DNA of 64,000 bases from Pelagomonas calceolata (lineage: Eukaryota), in contig CAKKNE010000001.1 in the NCBI GenBank assembly GCA_918797485.1, positions 2,232,001 through 2,296,000 of the forward strand. The letters run 5' to 3'. A model generated the notes under the pieces. It was not told where the DNA came from and searched no databases. It saw nothing but the letters and a program-made list of their open reading frames with translations. The translations under genes were made by a program, and so were the position numbers. This document shows, piece after piece, positions 33,435 to 55,397 of the stretch; the stretch's first letter is position 1, and each line of letters opens with the position of its first letter.

Positions 33435-35513
33435 ATGGCCGAGACCACGCCCAGCTTCCTCGTTGAGCTACCGAAACATGTCCCCGGCTGGGACTCGAGA
33501 GCAAGATCCAGTAGAGAAGGCCGCGCGGTCGCGATCTCGGGACCTAGAAAACAACGAGGCGCGACGCTACGAGGATGTGAACTCAGCGCAGAAGAAGGGT
33601 GTTTATTTGAGGGCGAGAAGGACGCTCTTGTGTTCTATCCACCGCTGGAACTCGCAGCAACGGCCACAATTGCAGTAGAACTCAAGCCGCGAACGCTCAC
33701 AAAAGACGAGCGCTGGCTCGTGGCGACGTTTGGCAAAGGTGTTAAAGGCGAGAGCGCCCACATTTGTATTTTACAGACAGAAGGCCAGCAGCTTTTAGGA
33801 CTGTGGGACGGGGATCAGGAGCAGTGGCACCCGTGCGAACCGGAATGTGACATAGCTCCGAATAATGATAGATTCGTCCGCATCGTGGCCCAGATCGAAC
33901 AATCGCAAACTTCTTACTATGTTGATGGCGTCTTAGTCGGGTGTGCGGCCCACGCGGTGCATGCGCCGATCCTAGGTGCCGGCAACGTGCCCCTATGCGA
34001 TCGACCAAAAGCCTCGTCTAGGAAACAAGTAGTGGGCTGGATGAGGCGGTTGGAGGTGTACAGTGGTTTAGTGTATCCGCAGCACTGCTTCCCGTCCACG
34101 TATCAAAAGCCGAAGCCGGCTCTACTAGCACCGTGCGCGCCGTCGCAGTACGAGACGGGCGCTCCCGTGCAACAGCCGCCGCCGCGTGCGAAAATCCGTC
34201 GTGTGACTGACGACGAGGGCCCGAAGAAGAAGAAGCCGAAGAAGAAGGCGTCAATCGAGCCGCCGCCGCCACCTAGATCATTAGATCCCGCGCAACGCGT
34301 CTGTGCTTCTAGAGTATTAGCCGTCCACGGCGAGGAGGAGGCTTTTCTCGAAGCGGTAAGAGCGGCGCCGCGAGGCCGCCACTTATGGTTAGGCTATGAC
34401 CCGAAGCCACCAGTTGACGCAAAATCGCTCGACGCGTTTTTACGAGCCCGGCCCCATAGAACGGTGTTCAAATTTAGGGGCGAGGACGCTCCTTCTTTTG
34501 GCCTAGGTGCTCTAGGTGCGGAGCTCGAACATGCTGCTCGAAGAGATGGAGGCGCGGCAGCCATGCAGATCCTGCGGGACAAGTCGCAGATGTCGACGCT
34601 CTTCGCGCCGACGGGCGCCGGCGACACGGACTGGAACCATTCTAAAACTTCGATTGAAGTTTCGTTTGATGGGTTCATTCGGTCTGCGGATAAAGCTGAT
34701 CAGTGTCGAAGCAGAAGGGACGTCAAGGGGTTGGATCGAGAAGTCGAGAAGGGTAGTAATGCGCAAAAAGTGACCGAGTGGAAGCCCGCCTTTCTACGAA
34801 GGCAAGGCACTTCACCGGAGAGCACTGGACTACTCCCACCTTGGTTTGAGAGTAGGTCGTGGCTGACAAAACTGAAGAGGTCCGACGCGGAAGTCTTCCG
34901 ACCGAAATTCGCATTGATGCAGGCCGGGGCCTGTACGGAACACCATCGAGATAACTACGGGACTTTAACGTGGATCAAGGTGCTCGGTGGCAGTCAACTC
35001 TTAGCGACTTGGAACATGGCGGATGGCGATAGTACACCGGAGTTATCGGACAACCAGGAAGAGCACGACGAAGACTTTCCTTGGTCTACCTTTGCCCAAT
35101 TACCTTCTGCGCGATTGGTCTTCCTAGATGTTGGGGACGTCTTTTTTATGCGTCCCGGAGTTTATCATCGAGTGTTCACTCTATCGGCCAAAGTACAATT
35201 GTTCGGGGAATTCGTCGGTGCTGCTACGTTCGTGGAAAGTCTCAAATCTGCAAAGGCCGACCGGGAACGGCCCCACTGCCTGAAGGCCTGCGATTCTAGA
35301 ATTACGATGACGTCACTATTTCTCGCGGGCCTCGCTGCGGAACTAGGCGAGGTCGACGAGGGGCCCCTTCAGCAGGCTTTGGCGTTGGGCGGTCTCGAGG
35401 CCTTGCGGGCCATCAGGACCTTGCCGGACAAGTACTTGGACCGGTGCTCGCGCTGTCTAGGCTTCGACGCGGACGCGGCGTGCCAACAGCTGCTGGCGTG
35501 CCCGGGGCTGTGA
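33435..35513 (+). CDS. LamG/concanavalin-like + JmjC domain protein
   Basis: N-terminal beta-sandwich (YYVDGVLVG). JmjC HxD in TEHHRDNYG and distal H in RPGVYHRV. Confidence 0.75.
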   Translation: MAETTPSFLVELPKHVPGWDSRARSSREGRAVAISGPRKQRGATLRGCELSAEEGCLFEGEKDALVFYPPLELAATATIAVELKPRTLTKDERWLVATFGKGVKGESAHICILQTEGQQLLGLWDGDQEQWHPCEPECDIAPNNDRFVRIVAQIEQSQTSYYVDGVLVGCAAHAVHAPILGAGNVPLCDRPKASSRKQVVGWMRRLEVYSGLVYPQHCFPSTYQKPKPALLAPCAPSQYETGAPVQQPPPRAKIRRVTDDEGPKKKKPKKKASIEPPPPPRSLDPAQRVCASRVLAVHGEEEAFLEAVRAAPRGRHLWLGYDPKPPVDAKSLDAFLRARPHRTVFKFRGEDAPSFGLGALGAELEHAARRDGGAAAMQILRDKSQMSTLFAPTGAGDTDWNHSKTSIEVSFDGFIRSADKADQCRSRRDVKGLDREVEKGSNAQKVTEWKPAFLRRQGTSPESTGLLPPWFESRSWLTKLKRSDAEVFRPKFALMQAGACTEHHRDNYGTLTWIKVLGGSQLLATWNMADGDSTPELSDNQEEHDEDFPWSTFAQLPSARLVFLDVGDVFFMRPGVYHRVFTLSAKVQLFGEFVGAATFVESLKSAKADRERPHCLKACDSRITMTSLFLAGLAAELGEVDEGPLQQALALGGLEALRAIRTLPDKYLDRCSRCLGFDADAACQQLLACPGL

Positions 35514-37083: not shown

Positions 37084-38913
37084 ATGGCCACGAAGCGCCC
37101 GCGCGCCGAGGAAGAAAAGGTCTGGGACGCCTTCCAGAACTGCTGGACGATAAATGGCGAGCCCGTCGACGATGCCAACGAGAGCGACGGCGAGGAGTTT
37201 GTCTCCCTCAAAGAACGACGCGCGTTAAAGGAGGAGCGCCTCCGTAAACAAAGGAAGCGGCCCGCTGCGGAAGAAGAAGAGGCACCAGAACCAGCACCGG
37301 CGCCGGAACCGCAGCAGCAGCGCGCGTTGGTCGACGAGGCCGAAGATTTAAGAAGACAGCAACAAGGCATGGACAAGGAGAAGACGAAGCGCGCGGAAGA
37401 GGAGGCGCGCATGCTGAGGGAAGCAGCTAGAGTGGGCACGAACGCGCTGAAGAGCGCCCGAGAAATTGCGGACGACACGCAGTTCGGCCGCTCGTTACCG
37501 ACGGACTGGCGGCCTCTCGATAAACCGCTGGACGACGAACAAGCTGCGGCCTTGCGGAAGAAGTGGTGCATTTTATGCGATGGGAATCAAGTGCCGCCTC
37601 CAATCAAGTCGTTCGAGGGCATGGGCCTACCTCGCGATTTGTTGAGTGCGCTCCGCGAGAAGAACATCCGAAGGCCGACGCCCATCCAGGTGCAAGGGTT
37701 ACCCGTCGCTCTGTCGGGCCGGGACATGATCGGCATCGCGTTTACTGGGTCTGGGAAAACCGTTGCATTCTCGATACCTCTGATAATAAGGTCGCTGGAG
37801 CGGGAGCGGAAACGGCCCCTACGGTCGGGAGAAGGGCCCGTTGGGGTTGTGTTGTGTCCGTCTCGGGAGTTGGCCCGACAGACCCATGAGGTCGTGTCAT
37901 TTTTCATGGACCGACTCGATCGAACGCCTCTCAGAAGCACGTGCGCCATTGGTGGGGAGCCGAAGCAGCAGCAGCTGGATGTTGTGCGACGACGAGGTGT
38001 GCATGCCGTCGTGGCCACTCCTGGAAGGTTTCGAGATTTTCTGGATAGTAGAGCGATAAACCTCCAGAGTTGTGTGTACATGTGCCTCGACGAGGGCGAT
38101 CGGATGTTGGATCTAGGATTTGATGAAGAGGTCCACCGCATCATGAACCACTTTTCTAAGCAGAGACAAACTCTGTTATTTTCCGCGACGATGCCGAAGA
38201 AATTTCAGGACTTCGCGAGAGGCGCTCTCGTTGACTCGATCACCGTGAACGTGTCGAGAGCGGGTGCGGCGAACCTGGACGTGATTCAGGAGGTCGAGTA
38301 CGTCAAGCTAGAGGCGAGAATTGTTTATTTGCTAGAATGCTTGCAAAAGACCGCGCCGCCCGTCGTCGTCTTTTGTGAAAGAAAAGGCGACGTCGACGAC
38401 GTGCATGAGTACTTACTGCTGAAGGGGGTCGAAGCTGTCTCAATACATGGTGGGAAAGATCAAGAAGAAAGAAATGACGCTATACGACGGTTCAAGGACG
38501 GTTCGAAGGATGTCCTCGTAGCTACCGACGTCGCCGCCAAAGGCCTAGATTTCCCGGACATCCAGCACGTGATTAATTTCGACATGCCGTCGGAAATTGA
38601 GAATTACGTCCACAGAATTGGGAGGACCGGTAGGTGTGGGAAGACGGGCGTGGCCACGACGTTCATCAACAAGACCGTGGAGCCCTCCGCTCTCCTAGAT
38701 CTGAAGCACTTGTTAGTTGAGGCCAAACAGCGCGTGCCGCCCGTGTTACAGGTTTTGGATGAACCGGAAGAGCGCGGCGAGGGGTGTGCTTTCTGCGGCG
38801 GGCTGGGGCACACGATCTTGGACTGCCCGAAGCGCGACAAAGATGCTCGTAGATTGAATGCCAACAGAAGGGACATGCTGAGCGGCACGGGCGGGCCGGG
38901 GGGGGACTGGTGA
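37084..38913 (+). CDS. DDX41: DEAD-box RNA helicase DDX41/abstrakt
   Basis: PTPIQVQG, AFTGSGKT, DEGDRM, SAT and HRIGRTGRCG, plus the zinc knuckle CAFCGGLGHTILDCPK. Confidence 0.95.
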   Translation: MATKRPRAEEEKVWDAFQNCWTINGEPVDDANESDGEEFVSLKERRALKEERLRKQRKRPAAEEEEAPEPAPAPEPQQQRALVDEAEDLRRQQQGMDKEKTKRAEEEARMLREAARVGTNALKSAREIADDTQFGRSLPTDWRPLDKPLDDEQAAALRKKWCILCDGNQVPPPIKSFEGMGLPRDLLSALREKNIRRPTPIQVQGLPVALSGRDMIGIAFTGSGKTVAFSIPLIIRSLERERKRPLRSGEGPVGVVLCPSRELARQTHEVVSFFMDRLDRTPLRSTCAIGGEPKQQQLDVVRRRGVHAVVATPGRFRDFLDSRAINLQSCVYMCLDEGDRMLDLGFDEEVHRIMNHFSKQRQTLLFSATMPKKFQDFARGALVDSITVNVSRAGAANLDVIQEVEYVKLEARIVYLLECLQKTAPPVVVFCERKGDVDDVHEYLLLKGVEAVSIHGGKDQEERNDAIRRFKDGSKDVLVATDVAAKGLDFPDIQHVINFDMPSEIENYVHRIGRTGRCGKTGVATTFINKTVEPSALLDLKHLLVEAKQRVPPVLQVLDEPEERGEGCAFCGGLGHTILDCPKRDKDARRLNANRRDMLSGTGGPGGDW

Positions 38914-39238
38914 CCTAAGTTGTGGCATCGGATTGGTGTGTCGCCGATTGATCGGATTGGTGAGTGGGCGGCCGCGTCGTCGTCGGGGCGGCCGGGGCTG
39001 CCCGACGCGGGGAGCCTGGTATCCTTATTTGGAATAGTAGTGCGCGAAAGGAGGCATCCTTGCGGCGGCCGCGCGCGCGCCGATTCCCGCCTCAACTTTC
39101 TGGTCTCGCGGGAGCGCCGGGGCAGATAGGGCTGCTTTCTACGTAAGCTGCCGGGAGGGCCGCTTTGAGCGCAATTCGGGCATAACCCCACTCTGAACGC
39201 CTTGCCCCGCGCCGCGGGCAGCCGAGAATCCACGCATC

Positions 39239-42200
39239 ATGGGGACCTCACTGCTCCTGCTGCCGCTCCTCATCGGGGCAGCCAGCGCGGACGTCAATGT
39301 ACGCTTCACGGAGGGCTTTGGCCACCCGGAGACCAACACCTGGGATAGCAGCTGCCGCGGCGGCGCGTACCGCGCAGCCGCGCTCACCAAAGCGGCGGGC
39401 CTGCGCATCGACGGTGGGGGCGTCGCCTACCAATGCGGCTCTGACACAGCTTGCGCGCAAGTCTTCGCCTCGATGGGCTACGACGGCTGGGCGCTCAACG
39501 CCGACGACCTCGCGTCGGGGTCGCTGGACACCTTCATCACCAACGTTGGCAGCAAGCCGGTGTTGTCGAACTACGCCTCGAGCTATACCTCGACATTCGC
39601 GAACATCGGCGGCGCCGTGCTGCTGGCGGTAGCGGATGGCGGCACGACCAAGTACCGCCAGGCCGTCGCCGTCGCGCTCACCGAGGCGCGGAACGCCGGC
39701 ATCGACTTCGACACCACGCCGGTCATTCTCCTGGTGAGCGGCATCTCGACCGTCGACATCGACGACCTCGGCGGGATCAACGCCGCGGACGCCGTGGAGA
39801 AGCTCGCCATGGAGACAGCGGACGTCGACCTCGTCATCGCGACGGGCATCTCCGGCCTGTCCACGAGCAGCTACGGGGAGGGCACCAACTGGGCGGGAGA
39901 AAGGGTCTACCTGGTCGGCTCCGACGCCTCGACGACCGTCCAGACGATGGCGCTCGGCTTCAACGACGGGACCGGCGCACCGTCGTCGATGGACAGAGAT
40001 GACGAGCCTTGCAGTGAGAGCAACTATGACGAGTTCATTTATAAAATGATCTACGGCAACGTCGACACCGTGCAGATCGGCATGCTCTGCGACACGGGCG
40101 CCGCCGGGCGCGAGGAGTGCGACGCGGGGCGGGCGGCGTTCGAGGCGATCAATAACAAGAACGACGGCATCTTCGACGACGTGCTGACATCGACGAAGCT
40201 AGAGGTGACGGTTGCGTCTTTTGACGGCAACAACTGCGGGCTCGGCGCCTCGGCGCGGGAGGCGTGGCGGACCGACCTCGCCGCGGCCAATCCGGTCGCG
40301 GTCGTCGGGCCCGGCGGTACGACGTGCGTGAAATCGGTCGCATCGAACTCTAACCGCCAGACTCTGGCAAGCTACGGTCTCCGGGATGACGCGGTCGTCA
40401 TCTCCGAGTCGTCGACGGCCACGGTCGCCAGCGACCGGTCCATCTACCCCAACCTGGCGCGCCTCGTGAGCACCGAGGACACGGTCAGCCAGGGGGTGTT
40501 GGCCGCATTTCAGAAATACGGCTGGACTCGCCTCGCCATCGTGTACGACGCCACCGACGAGTGGGCCGCGGACACCGCGAGGGTAGTGAGCGAAAACCTC
40601 GGCGCCGCGGGCATCGCCACCCTGGGCGACAAGTGCGTGTCGCGGTCGTGCGCGACATCGGAAAGCAAGTCGGATCACAGGGGTCCCAAGAAGAGCATAC
40701 GATTCGACAAAGCGGACCCCCACTGGGGCAACACCCTCATATCCACGGACGTGGCCGACTCAATTCTCGACGAACTGGTCGCACTCGACGCCAAGATCAT
40801 CTACCTCATGATCCAGCCCTCCGACACCAAGGTGCTCTTCGAGCGGATCTATCAAACAAAGAAGTGCTATGGGGCCGGGCACGCCTATTTTACCGGGTGG
40901 CCCTCGGACCAAATGTTTTTGAACGACGACGGAAAGGCGAGCACGGACGCCGCCTACGGCGCCGTGGGGCTGCTGACCGTCAAGGAGCGCCAGGACACGT
41001 CCGGTAGCGTCGCACAGGCCTTGATCGCCGCCCGCGAGGGCAGCATGGACGAGACCGTGTGCGCGCAGAACGACTATGTCAACGACGGCAGGTACTGCGA
41101 CGTCGACGGGGACGCCTCCACGCTGGGCGGCGGCTACGGCCCGTTCGTGGTCGACTCCGTGATCACGCTGGCGAAGGCGCTCGACTCGCTCAGCAGCAGC
41201 TCCGACCGCCAGAACCCGGAAAAGATCTACGAGGCGATTGGGGACGTCGGGAGGGCGGGTTTCGAGGCCTATTCGGGCACCGTGGTTCTGAACACCTACA
41301 AGGAGCGCGTGGGCTCCATGGCGATCAGAAATTACCAGCTCGAGGAGAAGGCGATCGAAAACGAGGAAAGGCGCCTCGCCGTGGATCTGACGTCGACTTC
41401 CCTGGCCGACAAGGTCGTCGCCAACATCGTGGGCGGCCAGTGGGTGCCGGAAGCCGGCATGTCGATCATCTTCCCGGGCGGCACGACGAAGGTGCCTCTG
41501 GACCGCACGCCCGAAAGCGACGACGGCAAGGGCAAGGTCGACATGGGCCTTATCTTAGGCTTAATCTTCGGCCTCTTCCTCCCGATCCTCCTCTGCATCG
41601 GCGTCGGCTTCTACCTCTACCGCCGGAAGAAGATCGAGAAATCCCGCAAACAAAAAGCGACGATCCAGCAGGCCCAGGACGAGCTCCAGGCCTTCAAGGA
41701 GAGCGTCGTGAACATGAGGGTTGTGGTCGAGGCGGCGGCGCCCGGGGGTAGCGCCGCGGAAAATGCGCCGCCGGCCGCGCCCGCCAAGTGGTACTGGGAG
41801 GAGAGCGTCGCGCGGCTGACGGCGCACGCCGTCGTCAAGCCGCCCCACTGGATCCCTTATGATGATCAAACCTCGGCCCAGCTCGAGGCGGCGAGGGCCA
41901 AAGCTTCGGTCGGCGGCTCGCCGGTCGTGCCCCTGTCGGCCGCGTACCACGCGAACGTCCTCGAGATGAAGCAGACGAACGTGCGTACCGGCTTCTCGCG
42001 GGCGCTTCTGCGGGACGCGCCGCCGCCTCCCAAATCTTCGTCGTGGTTTGGTTCCAGGGACGCACCTCCTCCGCCTCCCCCATTACCCGCGGACATCGAC
42101 GCCGACGAGCGCACTTGTTTGGTCTGCGACGTGGGTGCTATCTTACAACTGGCCAAACAACGGGACGACGGCTGGGCCTTCGGAAGCGTCGTCCTCGCGG

Positions 42201-43140
42201 CCGACGGCGCGCTGAGCACGGACCCGGGCTACGGCTGGAACCGCAACCAGGGCTGGTTCCAGATGGAGAAGACCGACGTGCCGACCGCGGACCAGTTAGC
42301 CGAGTTGCAGAAAGTACTGGGCGGAAGCGGCGGCACCGACGCTCTAGCCACGCCAAAGTACTGGGACGAAGTCAAGGACCCCACCGTCGTCGAGTACTTT
42401 AGATTAGATCCTAGGTCGCCGGCGACGCGCGACGAGTACACGAGGTGTGTGGACGCCTTCATGCTCACGCTCGATCGCTCGAAGTTCCGCATCCACTCCG
42501 TCGACCGCGTCCAGAACATCAGTCTGTGGCAGTCCTACGCCGTGAAGAAGGCCGCGACCTGTTCTCGTGAAGATGATCCTGATAAGGCGGCGCGGAAGTA
42601 TGTTCGAGCTTGGTTGTTTCACGGCTGCCCGAGTGACGTCGTTCCCAAGATCCTGCAGCAGGGTTTTAATCGTAGTTTCTGCGGCAAGAACGCGACGCTC
42701 TACGGCAAGGGCGTGTACTTCGCGCGCGACGCGTCGTACTCGACCTTTCCATTGTATTGCGCGCCCGACGCCCAGGGCGTGCAGACCATTTTCTTGGTGC
42801 GCGCCGTCGTCGGCCAGTGGTCCAAGGGCGTCAAGGACGCGCTCACGCCCGACGTCCGCGACGCGGCGCGCAACATCCTGTACGACTGCACGGTCGACAA
42901 CGTCAGGGACCCCTCCATCTTCGTCACGTACCACGACGCCCAGGCGTACCCCGAGTACATGATCAAGTTCTCGCAGACGACGCAGCACACCGGCCACCCC
43001 AAGGCCGGCCTGCCGGCGCACCGCCCCTACCGGTGTGGAAATCAAATTTACGGCGCGTTCGCTCGTTCTTCGCACCCGACTCACTGGTCGATTTCCACGC
43101 AGGCCTCTACCGGCCCAACCTGGTCGAGGGCATCGAGTAG
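39239..43140 (+). CDS. Single-pass receptor: signal, degenerate 5'-nucleotidase-like, Venus flytrap, TM, WWE, SH3-like, PARP catalytic
   Basis: PARP motifs WLFHGC, GFNRSFCGKNATLYGKGVYFARDASYS and PSIFVTYHDAQAYPEY. TM at about 41543-41620. The GC-AG introner intron 43023-43102 gives the end RLYRPNLVEGIE*. Confidence 0.85.
43031..43102 (+). mobile_element. Introner element forming GC-AG intron 43023-43102
   Basis: TIRs CGGTGTGGAAATCAA / TCGATTTCCACGCAG and TSD GCCCCTAC/GCCTCTAC. Confidence 0.88.
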
Positions 43141-43292
43141 GGCGCCCTATCCTACGCACAAATTCGCCTCCCCCTGCCCCCTCCCCCTTTCACACCGCGA
43201 GCTACTCACAGAACACACTCCCTTTCGCGACACACCGCGAGCTCTAGCTCGCGGTGCACACCCTCCGAAGTCTGGGTCACGAGTAACACTTA

Positions 43293-44123
43293 CTATTCGT
43301 CGCAGACGCGGACGCGCTCGGGCATCGCCACGGCGCCGAGCGCGCCGTGGTCCCGTCGTAATTTAGAGAAGGAGTCCTCGGCGCGGCCACCCGATCTCAC
43401 AAGGACACCGCGGAACCGCCGCATCGTCAGCGGCCGGAGCTTGGCGCTCCGGAAGTGCCGCCACATCTCCCGTTCCGGATACAGTGAGCGCGCCGGGTGC
43501 CTTTCCACTTCATCCCGGAACGTCGCGTAGGCGTTTGCATACGCTTCCATGGCGCGCGGCGCCGCGACAGCGACTTGGTCAAATACAAGATTGTCCTCGG
43601 CGAAGGGCACTAGCACGGTCTTGCCGTGGGCCAGTTGTAAAGCTGCAGTGAGATTTAGGTCCGAGCACCAGCGTAAGTCTGGCCGCGTCCGGATGACTAG
43701 GGCATGTCCTCTGGCATCGTTCCGTCGCAATGCATCGGCCTTGGCGATCGACCGGAACATCAAAGCGACGTTCGTGGCCTTGCCCCGCGCCGTGCCGTCG
43801 CCCGCGGGCAGGTCCTTGAGCCGAGGCAGGTCGCTCTCAAGCCCGGCCAGCGCCTCCTTGTAGGGCTCTAGCTCGAGCCGCCTTAGCCCCGGATGGCGGC
43901 CCGGCCGGCGCAGCGCGCGCGCGGCCGCGGCGTCGGAGCCGTCGGCGACCGCGAAGTAGTAGAAGTCGAAGACGAAGCCCGGGTTCGGCTGGACGACGCG
44001 CCGGAAGAACGACGCGTTGCAATTGAGGAACGTGCGCAAGCTTCCGGACGTGACGACGGCGACGCGCGGCTTGTCTGCTGCTGCCCCCATGATGATGAGG
44101 GGGCATAGGAATGCGCGGACCAT
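43293..44123 (-). CDS. Secreted putative glycosyltransferase-like protein
   Basis: Signal peptide, then VAVVTSGSLRTF, VIRTRPDL and FDQVAVA motifs. Confidence 0.65.
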   Translation of the reverse strand: MVRAFLCPLIIMGAAADKPRVAVVTSGSLRTFLNCNASFFRRVVQPNPGFVFDFYYFAVADGSDAAAARALRRPGRHPGLRRLELEPYKEALAGLESDLPRLKDLPAGDGTARGKATNVALMFRSIAKADALRRNDARGHALVIRTRPDLRWCSDLNLTAALQLAHGKTVLVPFAEDNLVFDQVAVAAPRAMEAYANAYATFRDEVERHPARSLYPEREMWRHFRSAKLRPLTMRRFRGVLVRSGGRAEDSFSKLRRDHGALGAVAMPERVRVCDE

Positions 44124-44465: not shown

Positions 44466-45633
44466 TCACGCCGCCGCCGACGCGCAGCCTCGGGCGCCGC
44501 AGGGCGCGTCTAGTGCGTTCGCGGCGTCGACGTAGAGTGCATCAAAGTTCTCCGTGTGGCGGGCAATGGCGTTCGCGAAGGCGTCGATGTCCTTCTTGCG
44601 GATGATGCCCTCGCCCCGGTTCAGCACGGCGTCGGCCAGAGCCACGATGCGCTCGTGGTCTCTTCTATGAGAATTCACCGCGGACAAATCATCATCAGGA
44701 CTCCCACCGAACCGCGCCGCGACCATGAGCTCCTCCTCGTGCGTGGCGTGCTCCCTAAATTCATCCCGCGCAACCTGCAACGCGTCCCGCGACCGCGTCT
44801 CCCGCAACTCGGCCAGAGCTTGGCCGATCGCCGCGTGCTCGGCGTCCATACCAGCATGGCCGATCTTCTTCAGGTCACCATCAGGAGACGCCGACCGCGT
44901 CGGCGCGTCCACGACCAAATTCTCCCGCTTGAGCGCGATGGCCTGGCCGTCGACGACGACCGCGACGCGGCCCGCCTGGCGGACCTCCGGAGGCGTCTCG
45001 GTCACGATGCCTCTTCTACCATTAAAGGCGTCGTTCGACAGTCCTGTGAGTTCGACGGCACTACCGACCGGCAGCGCGTCGCCTCCCAATAGCACGGCTA
45101 ATTTGGCGTCGACGTCCCGAAATGCCACTTCCCCGTAATCCAACAGACTTTTGGTTTTGGTGGTCACGATGTTCCCGTCCCCGTCGACGACCACAAAGCC
45201 ACTACAACCCAACTGCAACGGTATCTGCGGGATGTCCGGCCCCTCGACGACGCAATTCGTCGCCGTATGTAAGTAGAGTCGCGCGAACTCCCTCGCGACA
45301 TACTCGCCTTCGACACACACACATGCGAAGACACAAGCCGCCCCGTGCGCGCGCTGCCAGAGCTCCATCTGCTGCGCGCAGGGGCGGCAGCCGCCTCAGC
45401 CACCATTATAAAAATGGAGGACCTGTGTGTGTTTCCGCGTCCGATGTCGGAGAACGCTCGGGGCGGAAGCGCGCCGGACGAAGCGCGCCGCGTCTTTTGG
45501 GCCGGACACGGCGCGAACGTACCAGGGGCCGGCCCGCCGCGAGGCCCTTGAGCGAGGTCTTCGCACCGAGGGCACCGCCGGCCAGCGGCTTGACCATGAA
45601 ATCAGGGAGCGGCTTGCCCACGAAGGACGCCAT
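44466..45633 (-). CDS. Selenoprotein: thioredoxin-fold (UGGC) + SH3-like + hemerythrin
   Basis: Exons 45633-45523 and 45422-44466, with in-frame TGA at 45396-45398 in VLHFYNGG-U-GGCRPC. Hemerythrin ligands DAEH, HATHEE, HRRDH and HTENFD. Confidence 0.85.
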
Positions 45634-53082: not shown

Positions 53083-55397
53083 CTAGTCGTCGCCCCAGAA
53101 GAAGGCCGCGTCGTCGGCTTCAGCCTTCGCGGCCAGCAAGCCCATGGCTTTTCGGAGCGTGTCCCGTGTCGCTGCATCTAACAGTAAATCGGCCCATCCG
53201 TCGTCCTCGAGGACGACCTCGAGCGTCTCGACGTCGCGGACCTCCTCGCGGAACAACGCGTAGCGCGCCAGCTGCGACACGCCGCAGTCCCGGCACAGAT
53301 CTCGCAAGTCCTTGGCCAGCGCCGCGTCGGCGCGCGCCGCCTCGGCCCGGACCAGGGCCTCCACGATATCATCAGCAATCAAATCGACGGCGCAATTGGC
53401 CGCGCTCGTCGCGCTGTTCTCGGTCTCGCGCGCTTTCACCGCGTCGCGGATCTTGCGCGCCTCGTGCATGCGCGCGTCTAACTTGTCGATGGCCTCGTCG
53501 GCGATGTCGCGCCAGGCTTGCGACGCGGCACCATCATCTCGAGCCTTCGCGACCATCTTGCGGGCGGAACGTAAGGACGCGAGGTCGTCTCTGCTCTTGC
53601 CGGCCATCTGGCAGGCCTGCGCGATGGCGTTGTCCGCCTCCTTGGCGGCCTTGAACGCTCGAGCGGCGGCGGCCTGGCGCACGCGCGCCGTTTTTACTTG
53701 GGGCATCTTGGCGTTCTGCGTCGCGCACACCTGTGTGGAAATCAAATTCGGACGCCCCGCCCTCGATGGCGTGGGGGTAACCTAACTCACTGGTTGATTT
53801 CCACACAGACACAGACGGTAGCGTGGCGCGCCGCCGCCGCGACGGCTTTCGCCGCGCGTTGCGAGGCGTAGGAGGCCACGAGGAGGGCATCGTCCGCCGC
53901 AACCGTACGCGACGAGACCACTTCGCAGCGCAACCACTGCAGCTGGAAGCCGCCCCGGCCGTCGGCCACGAGGAAGTCTTGCTTGCCGCAGGGCGGAGCC
54001 CCGACACATACGGTGGTCGACGTGGCCCAGCCCCGCGCCTCGGAAGCTTCGTAGGCCGACCAGTCCCCGATTATCCAGGCCCAGGTGCCTTCTTTCTTCG
54101 CCACGAAGAGGTGGGCGCCCTTTGAGCTAAATAGTGGAGGTCTCGTCGCTTTCCGAGCCGCGCGGTACAAGCCGTTGACCTTCTCCGCTCTTGGACCGCG
54201 CGCACCGGACACGACGATGGCGGCGCAGGCCTCCCGCGCGGCGAGCGTCGCCCAGAGCGCGTCGGCGGCGGCGTCAGCGGCCTTGTTGGCCGCGGCGCGC
54301 TTCTCGAGCCAGCCCTTGCGGTCGCTCTTGCGGCGCTTCTCGTTTTCCCTCGCTCTAGCCTTGCGCTCGGCCTCGCGGCGCTTCTTCCGCTGCAGGCGCT
54401 TCTCCTCGGCGAAAAGGAGCTCGCCCGCGAGCGCCGCGGCGGCACGTTTCCGCGCCTGGGGCCGCCGCGCGCGCCAGGCCCGCTGCCAGAGCACGACGGC
54501 GTTGCGGCCGCGCCGCTGCGCCGCCCGACGTTTTTTCGCCGCGAGCCGCTTCTTGGCTAACATAACGCGGCAGAAGCGCTGGAGGTACGCGACGTAGAAG
54601 CCGCGCCGAAACATGTGAGCCCGAAAGCAGCGCTGGAGCGGCCAGGCGCACATGTGCGAGTCGGCTCGTTCCGCGGCTTCATCCGCCGCCTCCGAGGCCC
54701 GCGTCGCCGCGTCCAGCGCATCACATGCGCACTGGTGCGCCTTCCGCACCGCCCGCCGCAGCCCGATGACGCCGGGGACGCGCGACGCGCGCTGCACGAC
54801 GAGCGCGGCGCGCGTGACGGCCACGAATCTACGAGCGCACCGCACGCGGCCGACGCTCGCCAACCGCGTCGCCGCGTCGCGCCGCATGACCGCGGTCCAG
54901 ACCTTGCGGCATTGCGTCTCCTCCTTGCGCATCGCGCGGAGCTCCCGGGACCGCGCGTCGGCCTCGCGGCGCGCTAATTGGGCCGCCGCGTCGCGCGACG
55001 CCCGGGCGGCCTTGCGCCGGGCGTCCTGCTCCTCGCGCATGCGGCGCTTGGCGTCTCTCGCCTCTGACGCGGACGGGACGCTCGGATAGGCCGTTTCGAT
55101 CTTCCGCGTCTTGCGTCTGCGCGTGCGCCACCAGCCGACGAGCTTCGAGATGAGGACGATACAAACAAGGGTAAACGCGAGCGACATCGCCGCGTCGCCG
55201 GCGCCGCGCAGCTGCTTTGCGCCGTAGTTGCTCTTCTTCGTACTTCGCTTCTTGTGGAGCATGCTCCGGAAGAACTCCAATTGGTCGCCGCCATAATAAC
55301 CCGCCGGCACGGTCGCCGTTCCTAAATAGGTGTCCGACGCGTCGTAGACGGGGAAGTCGTCGCCCGGCAGGTAGCCGTGCGGGATGGTGATCCACAT
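53083..55397 (-). CDS. Single-pass basic coiled-coil protein with IQ-like motifs and SAM-like C-terminus
   Basis: Two ORFs joined by intron 53731-53816. TM LAFTLVCIVLISKLVGWW; IQ-like LQRCFRAH, LQRFCRV and WQRAWRAR. Confidence 0.65.
53731..53808 (+). mobile_element. Introner element in reverse orientation relative to its host gene
   Basis: Perfect TIRs CTGTGTGGAAATCAA / TTGATTTCCACACAG. The TSD is eroded (GCGCACAC/ACACAGAC). Confidence 0.9.

Follow-up and report, generated by a model that had tools for sequence, protein, structure and literature searches.

A stretch of 64,000 nucleotides from Pelagomonas calceolata (GCA_918797485.1, contig CAKKNE010000001.1, positions 2,232,001 to 2,296,000; hereafter the window) carries a gene whose predicted product joins a Venus-flytrap ectodomain, one membrane helix and a cytosolic PARP-type ADP-ribosyltransferase. 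On the basis of sequence comparisons and structure models, we propose with a probability of roughly 0.6 that this protein (hereafter the query) is a ligand-regulated, dimeric, single-pass receptor mono-ADP-ribosyltransferase. That it is a real membrane protein of the predicted layout appears nearly certain. The family to which it belongs is real, expressed, conserved and apparently undescribed. An original prediction, made from the letters of the window, had described such a receptor in a single reading frame, and the analyses described below bear out what it saw in the sequence and support its interpretation.

Architecture of the predicted receptor

Pfam assigns a PARP domain to residues 1065-1193 of the query (E 3.7e-20), and this match, like the two other Pfam matches reported below, exceeds the curated cut-off. 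PARP15 is the best sequence match (E 7e-38, ~39% identity), followed by PARP14, PARP10 and PARP12, and its structure is also matched closely (Z 27.8, root-mean-square deviation (rmsd) 1.4, 191 aligned residues). An H-Y-I triad had been read from the letters and is located at H1128-Y1160-I1227. Among 117 aligned family rows, H1128, Y1160, S1168 and Y1173 are invariant, and position 1227 is occupied by I (89 rows), L (12), M (9) or V (7), but never by E. Because this is the pattern expected of an active mono-transferase, we consider such activity highly probable from sequence. A FastTree phylogeny of 59 family and 14 other transferase domains, drawn to relate the family to animal-type PARP12/14, did not resolve the deep nodes or a single origin.

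A WWE domain, also foreseen, is detected by Pfam at residues 851-922 (E 3.1e-5) and matches the WWE structure of DTX1 (Z 10.2, rmsd 1.4, 64 aligned residues). A structure model of the cytosolic part, built with 79 sequences (predicted local distance difference test (pLDDT) score 89.9), contains a helix, a strand, the WWE, further strands and the PARP domain, such that helix, SH3/WWE and PARP fully account for this part of the protein. The original prediction had placed an SH3-like segment after the WWE. An SH3 is indeed present, but its first strand (826-829) lies N-terminal to the WWE and the rest (~962-1014) lies C-terminal to it, and thus the WWE is predicted to be inserted within the SH3. 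Solved SH3 structures span model residues 33-228 but pair only ~60 residues; the VAV SH3 aligns with Z 8.2 and rmsd 2.0 over 64 residues, and many other SH3 rows match as well. Although Z values of 7-8 are middling taken alone, the numerous SH3 rows, the sequence motif and a Pfam SH3_2 match in the relative P0181 agree. In the family consensus, D-Y/F/W-x-P precedes the WWE, whereas D-G-W and G-W-F-P follow it. Within the WWE, Q912 and R921 are each conserved in 115 of 117 rows, and Y/F903 in 114. By motif position, we take Q912, R921 and Y903 to correspond to Q153, R163 and Y144 of RNF146, which belong to the adenine/phosphate pocket described for the RNF146 and ZAP WWE domains in the available text of PMC8853533. 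Flexible, low-confidence stretches flank the WWE (model residues 48-54 and 146-152).

One internal hydrophobic helix is present at residues 771-789 (Kyte-Doolittle hydropathy 2.85), with three K/R residues before it and seven after, matching the single transmembrane segment and basic cluster expected from the letters. Both this helix and the signal peptide, an N-terminal hydrophobic stretch that had likewise been anticipated, were assigned from hydropathy alone. In the model, a helix runs unbroken from residue 791 to 822, that is, from the membrane to the SH3. Membrane-to-SH3 distances in the family peak at 30 residues (28 rows) and at 23-25 (41 rows). Linkers longer than 33 residues equal 30 plus a multiple of seven (37, 44, 58, 65 or 100) in nine of 12 single-pass rows, a count that omits three rows of multi-pass proteins and one with an apparent frameshift, and seven of ten hand-counted linker-length events are heptad steps (binomial ~1e-4). 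These steps of seven support a coiled coil, and hence a receptor dimer.

The ectodomain begins with a region that had been read as a 5'-nucleotidase-like domain with its metal ligands lost. Homology to 5'-nucleotidases (CD73/UshA) was established in two steps only: a profile of seven orthologues matches the N-terminal part of 5'-nucleotidase-bearing relatives (P0094, E 6e-13, 268 targets), and the relative P0110 aligns with CD73 over 17-548 (E 3e-24). No direct Pfam or fold match was obtained for this domain, the whole-ectodomain fold searches being filled by the flytrap, and pairwise BLAST against P0110 gave no match, so that the profile route alone succeeded. In the seven-row alignment, the positions of the dimetal His/Asp motifs, which we take to be those of canonical 5'-nucleotidases, are substituted, and 5_nucleotid_C, the substrate-binding C-domain, is absent from the Pfam scan of the protein. 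With neither metal ligands nor C-domain, this domain is likely a structural relic.

The class-C-type ligand-binding domain of the original prediction corresponds to a Pfam ANF_receptor match at residues 314-700 (E 2.8e-14). In a model of the ectodomain built with 10 sequences (mean pLDDT 72.5), the flytrap is best matched by GABA-B1 (Foldseek E 1e-17; Z 30.1, rmsd 2.9, 382 aligned residues), with natriuretic-peptide receptors (Z 28-29) and LivJ/K-type proteins within ~1-2 Z of this match. The query carries T361, T393 and W442 at positions that presumably correspond to ligand residues of class C receptors. Among 46 flytrap members, position 361 is S/T in 45, position 393 is T/S in 39 and position 442 is aromatic in all. 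The conservation of this pocket suggests that the ligand is likely a small amino-acid-like molecule.

Neither the nesting of the WWE in the SH3 nor the membership of the query in a large, sensor-swapping family had been recognised in the original prediction.

A family with exchangeable sensors, and the gene in the window

The original prediction had recommended a search for relatives with an ectodomain, a transmembrane helix and a PARP domain, and these proved to form a large family. A whole-protein search returned 34 proteins, and a search with residues 845-1250 returned 150 at E<=1e-45, of which 120 were listed. A set of 125 inner modules was assembled (124 relatives plus the query, the truncated P0010 being dropped). 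A hydrophobic helix lies upstream of the module in 123 of these (exactly one helix in 113) and downstream in none; the sequence is more basic after the helix than before it in 119, in line with the positive-inside rule, and at least 300 residues precede the helix or module in 105. An index-free search, 20 of whose 150 matches overlap the earlier set, recovered the SH3 half in 79 of the 150 matches, and a transmembrane helix in all 40 that combine a WWE with 150 or more upstream residues. The members with a named source belong to Aureococcus, Seminavis, Nitzschia, Cylindrotheca, Stauroneis and the choanoflagellate Stephanoeca, or stem from a Tiarina transcriptome in which prey may be represented. 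The names given to members in databases are automatic and inconsistent; five Aureococcus proteins (P0012-P0014, P0021 and P0022) are labelled 'platelet-activating factor acetyltransferase' at NCBI and are apparently mis-annotated.

The ectodomains joined to this module include flytrap, nucleotidase plus flytrap, NMT1-type plus CUB, phosphate-binding-type, Bmp, Cache, leucine-rich repeat (LRR), EGF, C-lectin and multi-pass forms, most of which are small-molecule sensor folds, and they fall into eight multi-member similarity groups and nine singletons. In a FastTree phylogeny built from 117 of the 125 inner modules, with eight partial or atypical rows omitted, sensor type switches no fewer than 15 times across the 106 labelled rows, a count made without a shuffle control. 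The ectodomain type of the query is found on three different inner lineages, and six full-length relatives from separate records share its layout. P0005 and P0037 have inner parts that are 99% identical and ectodomains that are unrelated, a pattern that reflects either recent exchange or an assembly chimera. A search with the ectodomain alone returned five proteins, all from this family and none fused to another output; as it covered only proteins of 693-2207 amino acids and close relatives, it provides no evidence of absence. A protein atlas look-up for P0003 gave no usable match.

Several members depart from the common layout. P0110, P0118 and P0125 have six to seven predicted helices before the same WWE-SH3-PARP module; together with P0120 and P0336, they carry a nucleotidase or Cache sensor and a Cys-rich segment before the module, and resemble fusions of a receptor of G-protein-coupled (GPCR) type to PARP. 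P0051 has four predicted helices before a WWE-PARP part, a different ectodomain and no evident SH3 half. P0109, from Stephanoeca diplocostata, has a hormone-receptor plus LRR ectodomain on a long branch and could reflect inheritance, transfer or prey contamination. P0155 and P0228 carry three and five tandem PARP domains, respectively. Members of 486 amino acids, a length close to that of the cytosolic part, recur in the P0011 cluster (P0136-P0146) and may be gene-caller fragments or a short isoform.

In the window, an ATG at 39239 opens the reading frame, with an in-frame stop upstream of it, and the genomic frame 39239-43366 is open through every domain. The claim of a single uninterrupted frame therefore stands for all domains, but the gene is interrupted after the last of them (PARP) by an 80-nt GC-AG intron at 43023-43102. 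This joint, the only one supported, is covered by 59, 24+, 26 and 15 spliced reads in four runs. The spliced stop codon (43138-43140) agrees with the gene end given by the original prediction rather than with 43366, and the resulting C-terminal tail is similar to the tails of P0008 and P0005. An unspliced product of 1375 amino acids is ruled out by the spliced reads.

Eight of 24 listed runs were compared with the window, four of them raw poly(A) runs entered under a single sample. Transcription on the + strand spans the entire gene: stranded poly(A) reads follow the reading frame in the sense orientation, all 30 bins are filled in three of the four raw runs, and raw reads match the window at >=99% across the joins. 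Two contig runs, both only guessed to be RNA, each hold one ~3.73-kb piece that extends from 39116-39125 to 42852, into the PARP domain, with zero differences; one of the two also contains the spliced join. The transcript begins at ~39116-39131. These data favour one transcript over the split into two genes that had been named as a test. Read-through from the upstream helicase gene was rejected since read depth drops from 54-90 to 1-4 between the two genes.

GC donors have been reported for pelagophyte introners, and the intron of the receptor gene is of this GC-donor, inverted-repeat kind. Together with Aureococcus proteins as the nearest named relatives, this makes a pelagophyte source likely. 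An introner-like end motif occurs eight times in the window versus 1.0 expected (2041, 14523, 19862, 29812, 43035/43091 and 53735/53797), with 53735-53804 forming a second short inverted pair. At 42677-42958, hundreds of partially matching reads derive from PARP paralogues encoded by this organism, some of which are far more abundant than the receptor gene, and one loose read end there resembles P0015. No functional link was seen between the receptor gene and the four neighbouring genes included in Table 1.

Table 1. Positions in the window of the receptor gene, its predicted parts and neighbouring genes
Feature	Position	Strand	Basis or remark
Whole receptor-PARP gene	39239..43140	+	coding exons 39239-43022 and 43103-43140, 1273 aa
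Predicted signal peptide, residues 1-17	39239..39289	+	hydropathy; similar N-termini in P0002-P0005
Degenerate 5'-nucleotidase N-terminal (metallophosphoesterase-like) domain	39290..40009	+	two-step homology
Venus-flytrap (type I solute-binding fold), residues 273-758	40055..41512	+	Pfam, model, structure matches
Single predicted transmembrane helix, residues 771-794, then basic cluster	41549..41620	+	hydropathy, family
Juxtamembrane helix, likely coiled coil, residues 795-822	41621..41704	+	model helix; family length steps
First strand of split SH3	41705..41743	+	SH3 structure matches, family motif
WWE, predicted inserted in SH3 loop; Y903, Q912, R921 conserved	41783..42016	+	Pfam, DTX1 WWE structure match
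Remainder of SH3, peptide-binding motif partly degenerate in query	42080..42283	+	VAV SH3 match, P0181 Pfam
PARP15/14-like ADP-ribosyltransferase; H1128 (42620), Y1160 (42716), I1227 (42917)	42350..42976	+	
GC-AG intron, 80 nt, inner inverted repeats, introner-like	43023..43102	+	spliced reads, motif count
Laminin-G-like protein neighbour	33435-35513	+	
DEAD-box helicase neighbour	37084-38913	+	
Convergent neighbour, reads overlap receptor gene 3' end	43293-44123	-	no Pfam match
Hemerythrin-domain protein neighbour	44466-45368	-	

Proposed mechanism and alternatives

We hypothesize that the receptor would be a dimer held by its coiled coil, in which the flytrap senses a small amino-acid-like molecule and the response is mono-ADP-ribosylation of the receptor itself or of cytosolic targets. 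Ligand would close the flytrap, thereby shifting or rotating the helices of the membrane and the coiled coil in the manner of natriuretic-peptide receptor cyclases, and this movement would permit or prevent contact between the two transferases, on which PARP15 activity depends. The WWE might bind the ADP-ribose mark written by the transferase, yielding feedback or clustering. The SH3 might dock partners, weakly in the query because its motif is partly lost. Control of the transferase through the ectodomain is reasonably probable, but a switch operating specifically at the dimer interface is a tentative proposal.

The transferase is predicted to form a homodimer through the surface used by PARP15. 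A two-copy prediction scored 0.35 versus 0.00 for the best control, with contacts agreeing at >=84% and pLDDT >=84, and places R1145 and D1233 in the interface. Of the solved pairs, 21 of 30 attained the mark of 0.32, against none of 23 single chains; in eukaryotes it was reached by 17 of 29 pairs, and by one of seven pairs that lack an older solved relative. R1145 and D1233 match R576 and D665 of PARP15 (counted along the PARP15 alignment from H559). These form the dimer salt bridge of PARP15, whose dimer is required for activity, whereas PARP14 is monomeric (PMC12572374, available text). Conservation of this residue pair was rejected as evidence for a dimer, given that monomeric PARP14 keeps both.

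Several observations weigh against the regulated dimeric receptor. The dimer score barely exceeds its mark, and because a PARP15 dimer with the same interface has already been solved, this result may reflect memory of the predictor; nor is conservation of the R and D diagnostic, as PARP14 illustrates. The second largest linker class, under a fixed rule, is 24 residues (24 rows), which misses the heptad series by one, short linkers vary between 15 and 29, and the heptad pattern of the query helix is only modest. Even where heptad steps indicate a coiled coil, they do not prove signal transfer. The 117 aligned rows were picked from the stronger matches, which inflates conservation. The query has substitutions at SH3 ligand positions 832, 833 and 1008. 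A WWE-only sequence search of the PDB gave noise and no solved WWE, and the pocket residues are equated by motif position. Assembly chimeras could account for some of the apparent sensor swaps. The RNA reads are all short, none spanning the whole gene, and the fourth raw run has a coverage gap at 40370-40536. Finally, the query ectodomain (39239-41548) has no N-glycosylation sequon where 4.7 are expected, which is unusual for a surface protein.

This depletion makes an inner-membrane location a real alternative, albeit an unlikely one, in which the same sensor-to-transferase logic would operate in the endoplasmic reticulum (ER), chloroplast ER or vacuole and read lumenal metabolites rather than sea water. 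Observed and expected sequons in the query and its closest relatives are 0/4.7, 0/4.5, 0/2.8, 1/5.4 and 0/2.0, and the depletion spans two unrelated ectodomain types among P0002-P0015. PARP16, which we take to act at the ER, offers a precedent as an ER membrane PARP. However, sequon counts are normal in the diatom members P0030 and P0033, no ER-retention signal was seen by eye, and the CUB, EGF, LRR, lectin, Cache and CD73-like ectodomains of the family are of kinds usually displayed at the cell surface. An innate-immune or death receptor, which would detect viruses, bacteria or grazers and respond by defensive ADP-ribosylation of proteins or RNA, or by NAD+ loss, departs from the proposed receptor in purpose more than in mechanism. 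The nearest solved relatives (PARP15, PARP14, PARP10 and PARP12) are antiviral-type enzymes, sensors appear to be exchanged quickly, as in P0005 and P0037, and LRR and lectin versions exist, but most sensors are conserved small-solute-binding folds with the pocket kept, and ordinary poly(A) runs already show expression. We regard this purpose as rather improbable.

It is quite improbable that the protein is a constitutive membrane-tethered transferase, whose ectodomain would anchor, cluster or scavenge while activity is set inside by WWE, SH3 or local concentration, or by proteolytic release. The flexible flanks of the WWE could uncouple the parts, the nucleotidase domain is a probable relic, and PARP15 can be activated by concentration alone (PMC12572374, available text). 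Nevertheless, the model helix is continuous from membrane to SH3, and a clearly soluble module was never seen among the 40 matches noted above, yet at least eight sensor types are joined to it, which counts against a mere anchor. Less likely still, and very improbable, is that the protein is a pseudo-enzyme scaffold able to bind NAD+ or ADP-ribose but not to carry out transfer, or that it is an artefact of assembly. PARP13 is presumably an inactive PARP fold. The plant SROs are likewise inactive PARP folds, according to the available text of PMC4245714, and the paralogue reads that pile up on the PARP part are of a kind that can cause chimeric assembly. In the family, however, triad and NAD-contact residues are invariant, and both the six relatives of the same layout and the read identity across the joins argue against an artefact.

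Extended from the query to the family, the regulated receptor becomes a broader proposal that we consider somewhat favoured: marine protists would possess an undescribed class of enzyme-linked receptors with a fixed WWE-in-SH3/PARP module, a dimer-geometry switch and exchangeable nutrient, metabolite or pattern sensors, including multi-pass GPCR-like ones, across pelagophytes, diatoms and choanoflagellates. If true, this class would stand beside receptor kinases and cyclases, with ADP-ribose as the first intracellular signal from a membrane sensor. It would also offer a natural setting in which to ask whether the dimer-gating shown for PARP15 operates generally as a switch, and would supply candidate sensors through which abundant phytoplankton could detect dissolved amino acids, phosphate, sulfonates or nucleosides.

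Comparison with known systems

Receptor guanylyl cyclases (NPR-A/GC-A and NPR-B) share with the query a signal peptide, a flytrap, one transmembrane helix, a helical linker and a cytosolic enzyme, but the query has a PARP output with a predicted WWE-in-SH3 in place of the kinase-homology and cyclase domains. Class C GPCRs (GABA-B1, mGlu) share the flytrap ectodomain, which gives the best structural match and keeps the pocket hydroxyl residues; the query has one helix rather than a seven-helix domain, although some relatives have six to seven predicted helices. The N-terminal domain is homologous to that of CD73/UshA 5'-nucleotidases but lacks the dimetal ligands and the substrate-binding C-domain. 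Ecto-ADP-ribosyltransferases of the ARTC/CD296 type are surface-associated mono-ADP-ribosyltransferases with an R-S-E motif, a glycosylphosphatidylinositol anchor and the catalytic domain outside, whereas the query has an H-Y-I triad and its transferase is predicted to be inside.

Among PARPs, clade 3 enzymes (PARP15, PARP14, PARP10 and PARP12, also PARP7 and PARP11) share the transferase fold, an H-Y-hydrophobic triad and an upstream WWE. Unlike the query, they are soluble proteins with macro, RRM/KH or CCCH domains and have no signal peptide, sensor ectodomain or SH3; the Pfam scan of the query contains none of the macro, RRM/KH or CCCH domains, and the ectodomain occupies those regions. PARP16 resembles the query in having a membrane-anchored PARP domain on the cytosolic side, but is a tail-anchored clade 6 protein, in contrast to the 0 of 125 family members with a helix after the PARP domain. 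Its transmembrane segment is noted in the available text of PMC4245714, where Perina et al. also mention clade 3 PARPs with a transmembrane segment in a sponge and Rhizaria. That text only mentions the segment, and describes no ligand-binding ectodomain, WWE-SH3 module or family.

The query is therefore enzyme-linked-receptor-like, yet it belongs neither with the receptor cyclases or class C GPCRs nor with PARP16 or the animal orthologue groups of clade 3. Known enzyme-linked receptors signal via kinases, phosphatases, cyclases or an RNase. We know of no described receptor with a built-in ADP-ribosylation output. In agreement with the original prediction, which knew of no such family, no prior description of receptor-type ADP-ribosyltransferases was found in open-licence PMC and bioRxiv, although supplements (for example, that of PMC4245714) may list such architectures; the available text of PMC3417536 contains nothing on them. 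Citarelli et al. (PMC2964712, available text) class Aureococcus and two diatoms as PARP-less, a listing that this family revises. What appears to be new is the combination of domains, the nested WWE-SH3 and the family itself; every component fold is already known, and the logic follows that of established receptors.

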